Part shown: piece by piece, positions 10,879 through 12,426 of the stretch | Layout: each line of letters begins with the position of its first letter | Position numbering within the stretch: the stretch's first letter is position 1 | Source of the DNA: a virus | Taxonomy: Duplodnaviria > Heunggongvirae > Uroviricota > Caudoviricetes | Strand: one strand, 5' to 3' | IMG/VR virus record: IMGVR_UViG_3300000358_000077 | Length of the DNA stretch: 21,074 nt | Notes under the pieces: model-generated | Seen by the model: the letters and a program-made list of their open reading frames with translations, nothing else | Told to the model about the DNA's origin: nothing | Database searches by the model: none | Made by a program: the position numbers and the translations under genes

Positions 10879-12426
10879 CTACTTGTCTTTTTTAATATGT
10901 TCAATCTCATCATTAAGACATTTATCTATTTTTTTTATTAACACATTAATTTCTTCGGTGTTTTGGAGTTGAGTTGTCTTAGAAACAAAAACTCGAATAA
11001 AGAATTTAACATAGTGATAGGGTTGAAGTACATCGTTATACTTACATAAATCATTTATTGTATACTTGCCGCCTGTTTCTTTTTTTATTATTTTAGCTTG
11101 ACTTGTATCGATATCTTTAAAGTTATCTTCAATCTGAAAATCAAGAACCCATTCATCTCCTTTTAAATTATCCTCAATGATTTTGTTGATTTTCTTAGAT
11201 ATATTTTGTTTATATTCTTTGTATCTGTTGTCGGAAATGTTAACATTAGAAAACGTGTGTTTTTTTTCATATATTTTTTTCCAAACATTTCTATCAACAA
11301 TATCTTGAATTATAGCTTGAGAATTTTTATCTAATGTGTTTTTAAGAGTGTTTTCTAAAAACGTTTTGTCTGGGTTTTCACGATAAAAGTGTTTGATGGA
11401 CTCAATGAGAGTGTTTTTAGATTTTAAAGAGACAACATCATCAGTTTTTTTTCTAGAACACGCTTTGTTAAGCATCGCAGATAGTGCACGATTGGTCTTA
11501 TGAAAATAAACTTGACTATAAAGCCCACTTCTTGCATTGGCAAATTCTAGTATTGAATCCATACCACTTTCTTTATATGCCAGGTAAACACTATTTTCAA
11601 CTTTCACAGGAATAAATGACATTAATAATCGTCCATAATCATAAATCCCATATTTAACGCCGGAGAAGTAGCTATCTCTAAGTAGGTAGTCCATTCTGTC
11701 CGCATCTATAGGTGAAGATGATATGATTGAACCTAATAAAGGATATACATTTACTCCCTCAATGTTATTTTTAAAATCATATCTTTTATCAACAATTTTT
11801 ATAATGCTTTCTGGATTAATAGCCGCTATGTTTTCTTTATAGATATCGTCGTCATTTGATTTATCTTGGGCTTCATTTTTTAATTCTTCAATAATTTCTT
11901 TAATAAAAATACATGATACTTGTTCGTGGGTTAACTTGTCATTATCACTTAAAGATATAATCTTATCGTATTGTTTATTTCCTTCAGTTTTGCATTTTTC
12001 TTTGAAATCTTTTACGGATATTGCAAAACTATCGAATTGGTGGGCAAGTGGGCCATGCCCAACATCGTGTAACAATGCTGCAATACGTAACTCCTGTATA
12101 AGACTTGAAGGCATTTTTTTTATATCTAAATATAGATCAATGCCCATATTTTTTCGGTCATAAATTAATGCATTCAAATTTATATTTTTCAAAATCTCAT
12201 ACGATAAATGCATTACACCGACAGAGTGTTCAAAGCGAGAGTGCATTGCAGAAGGAAATACTTTATATAGAAACGTGTTCTGCCTGATATCTCGTAGTCG
12301 TTGGAATAAAGGATGGTCAATTATCTTTTTTTCTAGCTTAGTTATTCGAATCACTCCATGTATGGGATCTAAAAACTTCCCCAGAAGTAAGTCTTCAAAG
12401 TTCTCAAGTTTGTTTTTGTTTGTCAT
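10879..12426 (-). CDS. SAMHD1-like HD-domain dNTP triphosphohydrolase (dGTPase family), 515 aa; candidate anti-phage dNTP-depletion protein
   Basis: HD-domain motifs PLFQRLRDIRQ, HSRFEHSVGV, AALLHDVGHGPLAHQFD and DADRMDYLLRD match SAMHD1/Dgt-type signatures. ATG at 12426..12424 with AAGGA upstream. Gene is AT-rich by eye and antisense to the surrounding early-right operon. Confidence 0.8.
   Translation of the reverse strand: MTNKNKLENFEDLLLGKFLDPIHGVIRITKLEKKIIDHPLFQRLRDIRQNTFLYKVFPSAMHSRFEHSVGVMHLSYEILKNINLNALIYDRKNMGIDLYLDIKKMPSSLIQELRIAALLHDVGHGPLAHQFDSFAISVKDFKEKCKTEGNKQYDKIISLSDNDKLTHEQVSCIFIKEIIEELKNEAQDKSNDDDIYKENIAAINPESIIKIVDKRYDFKNNIEGVNVYPLLGSIISSSPIDADRMDYLLRDSYFSGVKYGIYDYGRLLMSFIPVKVENSVYLAYKESGMDSILEFANARSGLYSQVYFHKTNRALSAMLNKACSRKKTDDVVSLKSKNTLIESIKHFYRENPDKTFLENTLKNTLDKNSQAIIQDIVDRNVWKKIYEKKHTFSNVNISDNRYKEYKQNISKKINKIIEDNLKGDEWVLDFQIEDNFKDIDTSQAKIIKKETGGKYTINDLCKYNDVLQPYHYVKFFIRVFVSKTTQLQNTEEINVLIKKIDKCLNDEIEHIKKDK

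Follow-up and report, generated by a model that had tools for sequence, protein, structure and literature searches.

Depletion of deoxynucleoside triphosphates (dNTPs) has been validated as a defence against phages (Tal et al. preprint; Clover; Vdg, the V. cholerae Dgt-like protein DGT1B_VIBCH), and nucleotide depletion is well established against viruses in bacteria as well as in humans. Every bacterial enzyme experimentally validated as an anti-phage dNTPase belongs to the Dgt clade, which is why the distinction between this clade and the SAMHD1 clade matters for the gene described here. Among the closest known systems to that gene are the catalytic core of human SAMHD1 (residues ~110-599) and its fungal and nematode orthologues (PDB 7ujn, 6txc, 9mr6, 6pwy). 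EF1143 of Enterococcus faecalis (PDB 2o6i/3irh/4lrl) is the biochemically characterised bacterial dNTPase of the same clade, in which Aq_1910 (2hek) and BT4208 (2q14) are uncharacterised relatives. Tal et al. offer only the suggestion that EF1143-type dNTPases “may also play a role”; a 2026 survey on Vdg used the SAMHD1 core as its structural seed, but the enzyme characterised was Dgt-type; and a 2026 review gives bacterial SAMHD1-like defence proteins as “unidentified”. We analyzed a 21,074-nt stretch of viral DNA (IMG/VR record IMGVR_UViG_3300000358_000077, hereafter the window), which represents the early part of a lambdoid E. coli prophage. Between its ren-like and ninB genes lies a gene for an HD-domain protein (hereafter the HD gene and HD protein) that belongs to the SAMHD1/EF1143 clade and that we propose may be an anti-phage dNTPase. 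The gene and the DNA immediately around it contain the following features.

10879-12426, minus strand: HD gene coding sequence, 515 aa, SAMHD1/EF1143-clade HD-domain protein
10879-11331, minus strand: C-terminal alpha/beta domain of the HD protein (residues 366-515), probable diverged counterpart of the SAMHD1 C-terminal lobe
10802-10869, minus strand: two hairpins 3′ of the HD stop codon, at 10851-10869 (8-bp stem) and 10802-10836 (16-bp stem)
12427-12730, minus strand: 5′ region of the HD gene, read from the sequence, with ribosome-binding site and inverted repeat
12731-12760, minus strand: hairpin GCATCGTTGA...TCAGCGATGC, past the stop codon of PD-lambda-1, folding at -20.7 kcal/mol (z = -4.5)
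12786-14287, minus strand: PD-lambda-1/SNIPE (DUF4041 plus T5orf172/GIY-YIG nuclease; Pfam, PADLOC), context outside the HD unit
10523-14713, no strand: low-GC cargo island in the ren-ninB slot, from the composition profile and flanking genes

The HD gene is a single unbroken open reading frame (ORF) of 515 codons that runs from ATG to TAG on the minus strand, while the plus strand over the same interval is riddled with stops. The original prediction, made from the letters of the window alone, described a SAMHD1/Dgt-type HD-domain triphosphohydrolase and quoted four motifs. All four are found in the ORF, in the N- to C-terminal order PLFQRLRDIRQ (residues 39-49), RFEHSVGV (64-71), LLHDVGHGPLAH (118-129) and DRMDYLLRD (243-251). 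The motif observation is genuine and well beyond chance, as judged from the Pfam HD score, the phmmer matches to PDB chains and the more than 7800 homologues scored at E <= 1e-5. The Pfam HD model (PF01966) matches with 29.8 bits against a gathering score of 22 (E = 7.8e-7), and phmmer against PDB chains returns 2hek (E = 4.5e-30), EF1143 (1e-26) and human SAMHD1 (3.5e-26), with query residues 19-430 aligning continuously to human SAMHD1 residues 119-502. A profile built from a 62-member family matches SAMHD1-clade chains exclusively in the PDB (E 7.6e-45 to 1e-25), including human SAMHD1 at E = 1.1e-32 and EF1143 at 5.5e-36. Searched exhaustively, a set of 1.84 billion cluster representatives yielded 14,447 matches at E <= 1e-3 and 314 at E <= 1e-30. 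The Dgt half of the predicted label fared differently: the Dgt model TIGR01353 reaches 23.4 bits where its cut-off is 152.35, and the PADLOC “dGTPase” model gives 16.7 bits (E = 9e-4) over the HD motif region only. For contrast, a true Dgt-type gene that neighbours an HD homologue in Vibrio caribbeanicus (locus L027) scores 449.7 bits with the same PADLOC model.

Structure comparison leads to the same assignment. An AlphaFold2 monomer model built from the family alignment has a predicted local distance difference test (pLDDT) of 89.3 and a predicted template-modelling score (pTM) of 0.90. With Foldseek, ~515 columns, essentially the whole chain, align to tetrameric human SAMHD1 with a template-modelling (TM) score of 0.63-0.72. 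Whole-chain structural similarity to Dgt-type dGTPases was not found, and the two clades separate clearly in the paired values of the structure comparison:

SAMHD1/EF1143 clade (Aq_1910 (2hek), fungal SAMHD1, BT4208, EF1143, human SAMHD1, C. elegans orthologue): 28.9-24.5; 356-404
Dgt clade (TT1383, V. cholerae VC1979, PA1124, L. blandensis dGTPase, Clover CloA): 12.8-9.9; about 250

Sequence and structure thus agree in placing the HD protein in the SAMHD1/EF1143 clade and not in the Dgt clade; the SAMHD1-like part of the prediction stands, and the Dgt part was imprecise. RefSeq names the protein only “HD domain-containing protein”. The EF1143 group shares only ~27% identity with the HD protein, and 2hek, with 371 aa, has no counterpart of the C-terminal alpha/beta domain. 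Unlike the HD gene, EF1143 and the structural-genomics proteins are encoded on chromosomes, and no connection of theirs with phages or defence islands has been reported. Conversely, Sp-dGTPase, Vdg/VC1979 and CloA share with the HD protein the chemistry of HD-superfamily triphosphohydrolases, and they resemble it in being stand-alone or small-operon genes of defence islands, in proposed dNTP depletion and in nucleotide-controlled allostery, which for the HD protein is a prediction. Clover pairs the dNTPase CloA with the nucleotidyltransferase CloB, whereas the HD gene has no adjacent nucleotidyltransferase partner, and HD homologues are single genes in every context examined. The HD protein can be aligned directly to human SAMHD1; the validated bacterial anti-phage enzymes cannot.

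Residue equivalences were drawn from the phmmer SAMHD1 alignment and from two family alignments, one of 62 close relatives and the other of 122 diverse ones. Metal ligands are H67, H120, D121 and D243, the counterparts of SAMHD1 H167, H206, D207 and D311; all four are invariant in both sets of relatives. The accessory catalytic residues H124, H129, D132 and H167-E168 correspond to SAMHD1 H210, H215, D218 and H233-E234 and are invariant or nearly so, with D or E at the D132 position within the family. The H167-E168 dyad sits within a “THEQ” motif, as it does in SAMHD1; phmmer misplaces this dyad because of the insertion in the 138-228 region. Substrate contacts R64, Y247, D251, R299 and Y307 (SAMHD1 R164, Y315, D319, R366 and Y374) are likewise invariant or nearly so. 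At allosteric site 1, guanine is recognised in fungal SAMHD1 by the triad D34/Q39/R42, and the human residues are similarly placed (PMC12042053). The same D-x4-Q-x2-R pattern appears in the HD protein as D37/Q42/R45 (SAMHD1 D137, Q142 and R145), with Q42 and R45 invariant in close relatives and D or N at the D37 position. R379, which is invariant in the family, aligns with SAMHD1 R451, a residue that contacts the site 1 triphosphate in SAMHD1 structures. Equivalents retained at allosteric site 2 are V56/F57 (V156/F157), R266 (R333) and H309/K310 (H376/K377), and an equivalent of SAMHD1 K523 could not be assigned. As read from these alignments, the catalytic apparatus is complete, site 1 is well preserved and site 2 is partly preserved.

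The last ~150 residues were predicted to be a Lys/Asn/Ile-rich extension that could serve as a regulatory or sensing module. The composition is as described: K/N/I content is 16.7/9.3/13.3% in residues 366-515 and 10.1/6.8/9.6% in residues 1-365. The internal variable segment 138-228 has a similar bias, so the low GC content of the gene (29-31%), and no separate module, accounts for the composition. Close homologues are all 500-523 aa long, and R379, W382, E387, K437, D438, K449 and R478 are family-invariant residues inside the C-terminal region. Sequence homology to SAMHD1 also extends into it, to residue 430 with the human protein and to residue 486 with chain 5yhw. The region folds confidently as a beta-sheet plus helix in the full model and equally in a model of the region by itself (pLDDT 91.1), for which the only structural matches are generic ferredoxin-like folds and the SAMHD1 C-lobe. 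In SAMHD1, the C-lobe contributes to allosteric sites and tetramer contacts. A novel C-terminal sensor was rejected, given that the region is family-wide, bears the R451 equivalent and matches the SAMHD1 C-lobe; on the models, the best reading is a folded domain that is the strongly diverged equivalent of that lobe.

The 4.2-kb island in the ren-ninB slot has ~29-37% GC, compared with ~45-53% in the flanks. Its two cargo genes, HD and PD-lambda-1/SNIPE, lie on the minus strand and are antisense to the pR transcript; by analogy with lambda, the early-right transcript from pR would have to traverse both genes to reach the nin genes and Q. In related phages, the slot holds emrE-ybcK-ybcL-ybcM, or Rha with small ORFs, or PD-lambda-1 with Rha, and it is a cargo hotspot. 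The limits of the HD module (~10523-12730) were set by comparison with phage PhiR26_1, which has PD-lambda-1 and no HD gene. Homology to PhiR26_1 ends at the end of ren and restarts at the 12731-12760 hairpin, just past the PD-lambda-1 stop codon. Since homology to PD-lambda-1-only phages ends beside this hairpin, ~290 bp of upstream DNA belong to the HD module.

Within this upstream region, a well-matched ribosome-binding site, AAGGAAAG at 12431-12438, lies ahead of the start ATG at 12426. Farther upstream is a perfect 10-bp inverted repeat, CAATGTGTTA-N9-TAACACATTG, at 12488-12516 on the minus strand; it resembles a possible operator of a dimeric regulator, and no regulator gene adjoins it. 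The 12731-12760 hairpin is kept in PhiR26_1 and is likely a terminator that separates the PD-lambda-1 and HD transcription units. The two hairpins beyond the HD stop codon are together stable to -29.1 kcal/mol (z = -7.1), a stability equalled in 0/200 shuffles. No U-tract follows them on the minus strand, and they may act as a terminator or as a transcript stabiliser. We note that, on the opposite strand, the same hairpins face the incoming pR/ren transcript. From this arrangement the HD gene looks like an independent transcription unit. A consensus scan of the island for promoters and terminators gave sites no commoner than in shuffled sequence and did not locate the HD promoter. Between ren and PD-lambda-1 there is no ORF of at least 60 aa besides the HD gene that could be a hidden partner, although small ORFs of 20-47 aa are present. 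The flanks show no repeats, direct or inverted, of the kind expected at the ends of a cassette or transposon, only short AT-rich matches at chance level, and an Rfam scan of the whole window gave zero matches.

The neighbor PD-lambda-1/SNIPE shares with the HD gene the low-GC island, the strand, the ren-ninB slot and the organisation as a single-gene unit. It differs in encoding an unrelated membrane-anchored GIY-YIG nuclease that cuts DNA during injection, in its separate transcription unit and evolutionary history, and in being frameshifted in the window. Compared with the intact 500-aa gene of PhiR26_1, it has lost 1 bp between 14058 and 14059 and is left as a 78-aa ORF, which is the N-terminal transmembrane fragment, and a 432-aa ORF. 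Against the PADLOC PD-Lambda-1 model, the 432-aa ORF matches at 3.8e-190 over positions 83-484 and the 78-aa ORF over positions 1-80. E. coli 23AR0806 has a split PD-lambda-1 annotated likewise; the gene is intact in strains SCU-111, 2 HS-C, 2018-11-3CC and 1297KP. In TB354, Evo1 and CP137705, IS1 is annotated within the matched island together with split SNIPE/DUF4041 or GIY-YIG coding sequences, which suggests that IS1 has inserted in PD-lambda-1.

Of 5426 complete E. coli genomes, 21 have the HD module, always on the chromosome, in the ren-ninB slot and next to PD-lambda-1, which is also found in this slot without the HD gene. The E. coli HD gene was present in 0 of 50,697 phage genomes. 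None of the PhiR phage records, which presumably originate from the study of E. coli prophage defences by Brenes & Laub 2025, carries it. Among the carriers individually inspected, the full-length 1548-nt ORF is present in the window, 23AR0806, SCU-111, 2 HS-C and 2018-11-3CC. In 1297KP (L016, 3924-4925) the HD gene is frameshifted after ~residue 327 and PD-lambda-1 is intact. In 2 HS-C (L014, 978-6789) the pair is kept in a heavily decayed prophage at tRNA-Arg, where int, exo and a bet fragment abut the island. The alleles fall into two groups, of at least 99% and ~92% nucleotide identity. The ratio of nonsynonymous to synonymous divergence (dN/dS) between the two E. coli alleles is 0.27 overall and is distributed along the protein as follows.

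Residues 1-137, catalytic: dN/dS 0.11
Residues 138-228, variable insertion: dN/dS 0.32
Residues 229-365, catalytic: dN/dS 0.13
Residues 366-515, C-terminal domain: dN/dS 0.44

The HD gene is therefore under purifying selection throughout. For the same genome pair, dS is 0.27 for the HD alleles and 0.02 for PD-lambda-1, so the two genes have separate histories. Between the HD gene of the window and that of SCU-111 (L013, 3378-4925), dS is mosaic, at 0.09 over codons 1-137 and 0.46-0.50 over codons 138-365. Together with the near-identical PD-lambda-1, this pattern points to recombination within and around the HD gene.

A scan of one genome per species found 135 relatives over Gammaproteobacteria, Bacteroidota, Bacillales and others. 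Individual homologues, given here with their identity to the HD protein, lie in a variety of settings.

Yersinia enterocolitica, 68% (L019, 9001-10572; L020, 2325-3896): lone reverse-strand gene in a P2-like prophage, flanked by baseplate gpV and tail-completion gpS
Proteus mirabilis, 76%: icd-inserted island shared with a CD-NTase/Cap15 cyclic-oligonucleotide-based anti-phage signalling system (CBASS)
Pantoea ananatis, 51%: adjoins a type II methylase/NmeDI-like restriction-modification (R-M) pair and a transposase
Enterobacter, 75%: adjoins HigB/helix-turn-helix (HigBA) and an Hcp-Tlde1 module
Vibrio cholerae, 44%: superintegron cassette amid toxin-antitoxin cassettes
Serratia, 79%, and Aeromonas, 47%: small islets adjoining housekeeping genes
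Klebsiella pneumoniae, ~44%: stable chromosomal gene in the order LysR, short-chain dehydrogenase/reductase (SDR), HD, DJ-1, type VI secretion; cluster of 3530 sequences

The gpV-gpS site in the P2-like prophage means that two unrelated temperate-phage lineages carry the HD cargo gene. We also surveyed, with PADLOC and Pfam, 84 ORFs lying no more than three genes from the HD gene at 16 gammaproteobacterial loci. A complete Zorya II operon lies directly downstream of the HD gene in Psychromonas (L040), and a Dgt-type dGTPase (PADLOC, 2.9e-135) lies directly upstream of it in Vibrio caribbeanicus. In this last locus (L027, 8394-9713 and 10001-11428), the two dNTPase clades are adjacent in one island. 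The other PADLOC matches were DarT, DarG, an Aga-type restriction endonuclease and PDC-S48, and Pfam identified two integrases. The association of HD homologues with mobile and defence DNA is clear but not overwhelming. Apparent carriage by Klebsiella phages, along with a strong match to PHROG 35128, was rejected as evidence of phage association because the prophage calls overshoot into host DNA. In these records (L012, 1-6072; ST11-VIM1phi8.3, MK416019.1; H71, H73, H74), host LysR, SDR, HD and DJ-1/PfpI genes lie outside the integrase in the gene order of the chromosomal locus, and such host DNA probably explains the PHROG 35128 membership.

Starting from the integrity of the gene, its clade, its fold, the conservation of its catalytic and allosteric residues, its position, its distribution and the purifying selection upon it, we infer that the protein acts on dNTPs, oligomerises, is activated allosterically, is expressed in the lysogen and gives an anti-phage phenotype. 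With modest confidence, we lean toward a single-gene anti-phage dNTPase, expressed by the lysogen and under SAMHD1-like allosteric control, that would cap the dNTPs available to superinfecting phages. The HD protein would be a catalytically competent, stand-alone (deoxy)nucleoside triphosphate triphosphohydrolase, carried in the ren-ninB slot as an independently transcribed “moron”. It would hydrolyse dNTPs to deoxynucleosides and triphosphate and so starve the DNA replication of the incoming phage. A guanine nucleotide may bind the D37/Q42/R45/R379 site and a dNTP the neighboring second site (V56/F57, R266, K285, H309/K310), at interfaces between subunits to which the C-terminal domain contributes, and their binding would drive oligomerisation and activation. 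If activation is nucleotide-driven in this way, activity should rise with the dNTP pools during infection. The contexts that favor this proposal are the ren-ninB slot beside PD-lambda-1, the P2-like moron site, the integron cassette and the CBASS, R-M, Zorya II, DarTG and dGTPase neighbors. Of the original prediction as a whole, the SAMHD1-like enzyme on a prophage is confirmed, the defensive role is plausible, and the Dgt family was imprecise.

Several observations weigh against this proposal. At allosteric site 2, SAMHD1 R352, K354, N358 and N119 are replaced by K285, S287, S291 and L19. PADLOC-DB v2 returns only marginal matches for the HD protein (dGTPase, 9e-4; Cas3 HD, 0.019), and the literature covered, which did not include Brenes & Laub 2025, contains no experiment on the HD protein or its close relatives. 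The prophage itself would have to replicate after induction in the presence of its own dNTPase; antisense read-through from pR might, speculatively, shut off the HD gene at that stage. Most of the 84 surveyed ORFs are housekeeping genes, the Klebsiella pneumoniae homologue lies between ordinary metabolic genes and the Aeromonas homologue adjoins cysS in two species, all of which would also fit a housekeeping or sanitising enzyme that trims or balances dNTPs with no direct anti-phage role. Such an enzyme would touch mutation rate, stationary-phase survival or prophage maintenance, as proposed for EF1143 and E. coli Dgt, and the enzyme assignment is equally compatible with it; the Klebsiella site is also stable and its cluster large and conserved. 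We nonetheless regard this explanation as unlikely, considering that the E. coli gene is rare, exclusively prophage-borne and placed in a slot beside a proven defence gene, that the family recurs at an unrelated moron site, in an integron cassette and near CBASS, R-M, Zorya, DarTG and a defensive dGTPase, and that its patchy spread across phyla is atypical of a housekeeping gene.

Another rival is that the SAMHD1-like fold works on a different substrate or in a different way, for example on rNTPs, on modified or signalling nucleotides or by binding nucleic acid, and serves defence or counter-defence by a route other than dNTP depletion; it has its starting point in the active site. SAMHD1 L150, the 2′-gate beside the sugar 2′ carbon, is Asn (N50) in the subfamily and N, L or T across the clade, which leaves the substrate range not certain and counts as a further point against the favored proposal. 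The equivalents of SAMHD1 Q375 and H370 are also changed, to F308 and Y303, the close structural relatives 2hek and BT4208 have no assigned activity, and site 2 is only partly conserved. The C. elegans SAMHD1 orthologue has Thr at the L150 position, yet it is a dNTP-selective dNTPase that excludes rNTPs (PMC10485159), so N50 is weak evidence for an altered sugar specificity. Moreover, the triphosphate- and metal-binding residues and the equivalents of Y315, D319, R366 and Y374 are all invariant, the characterised clade members (SAMHD1 orthologues and EF1143) are all dNTPases, and the reverse-strand, lysogen-type orientation speaks against counter-defence in the lytic cycle. We judge another substrate or mode to be less probable still than a housekeeping role. 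Least probable by far is a two-gene system in which the HD protein, as a functional partner of PD-lambda-1/SNIPE, supports or regulates the nuclease. Although the two genes are adjacent and on the same strand in 21/21 HD-bearing E. coli genomes, PD-lambda-1 stands alone in many prophages and phages, SNIPE is described as acting as a single protein (PMC13190303), and the loci examined elsewhere show no DUF4041 neighbor of the HD homologue. A conserved hairpin and ~290 bp of HD-specific upstream DNA lie between the genes, their dS values are discordant, and the window has HD intact beside a frameshifted PD-lambda-1. The two-gene system was thus rejected on distribution, the separating hairpin and discordant divergence.

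Nucleotide-depletion defence and the biochemistry of the SAMHD1/EF1143 clade are already known; the candidate would follow this known strategy but differs in its clade and regulatory architecture. In the same coverage of the literature, outside of which Brenes & Laub 2025 falls, we found no report of a SAMHD1-clade bacterial protein in phage defence, and no such gene is mentioned by DefensePredictor, the domain-centric screen, the P2/P4 hotspot study, the SNIPE paper or the reviews covered. A bolder reading, which we hold only tentatively and think doubtful on balance, is that the HD family is the prokaryotic antiviral counterpart of SAMHD1, in which case antiviral dNTP depletion in animals would have been inherited from anti-phage immunity and would not be convergent with the Dgt-type defence dGTPases. 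On the same tentative footing, lambdoid and P2-like phages would traffic, as a superinfection-exclusion weapon, a phage-mobilised dNTPase equipped with the SAMHD1 allosteric switch and oligomerisation lobe. The candidate could connect the antiviral role of SAMHD1 with bacterial immunity, an idea that has itself been anticipated, and the link is readily testable, with the gene sitting in a prophage defence slot of a genetically tractable organism. If the gene is protective, defence catalogues would gain a new single-gene family and SAMHD1-type allostery a simple bacterial model, and the question would arise of how the prophage tolerates its own dNTPase on induction. If it is not, the HD protein would be an ordinary accessory HD phosphohydrolase.

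The prophage setting that had been predicted for the gene is borne out by the remaining genes of the window, which are those of a lambdoid prophage.

1-1143: integrase
Within the window: exo/bet
6849-7577: cI-like repressor
8446-9531: O
9528-10229: P
10226-10522: ren-like ORF
14714-15169: NinB/YbcN
Within the window: rusA
16187-16876: Q
Within the window: lysis genes

Two further regions deserve mention. Directly downstream of the cI-like repressor, and on the same strand, a 317-aa ORF (5834-6787, minus strand) occupies the position of rexAB in lambda. It has no Pfam match and matches the PADLOC candidate defence family PDC-S42 at 3.4e-86. With this PDC-S42-type ORF at the rexAB position, the prophage bears cargo at two classic defence positions. 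Past the lysis genes, the interval 18456-21020 contains a reverse-strand 113-aa ORF, at the place where a 100%-matching strain annotates iss, and a TonB_C-domain ORF at 19176-19556. Two other reverse-strand ORFs, at 19679-20311 (210 aa) and 20481-21020 (179 aa), have no Pfam or PADLOC match, and the interval as a whole may be a further cargo region.

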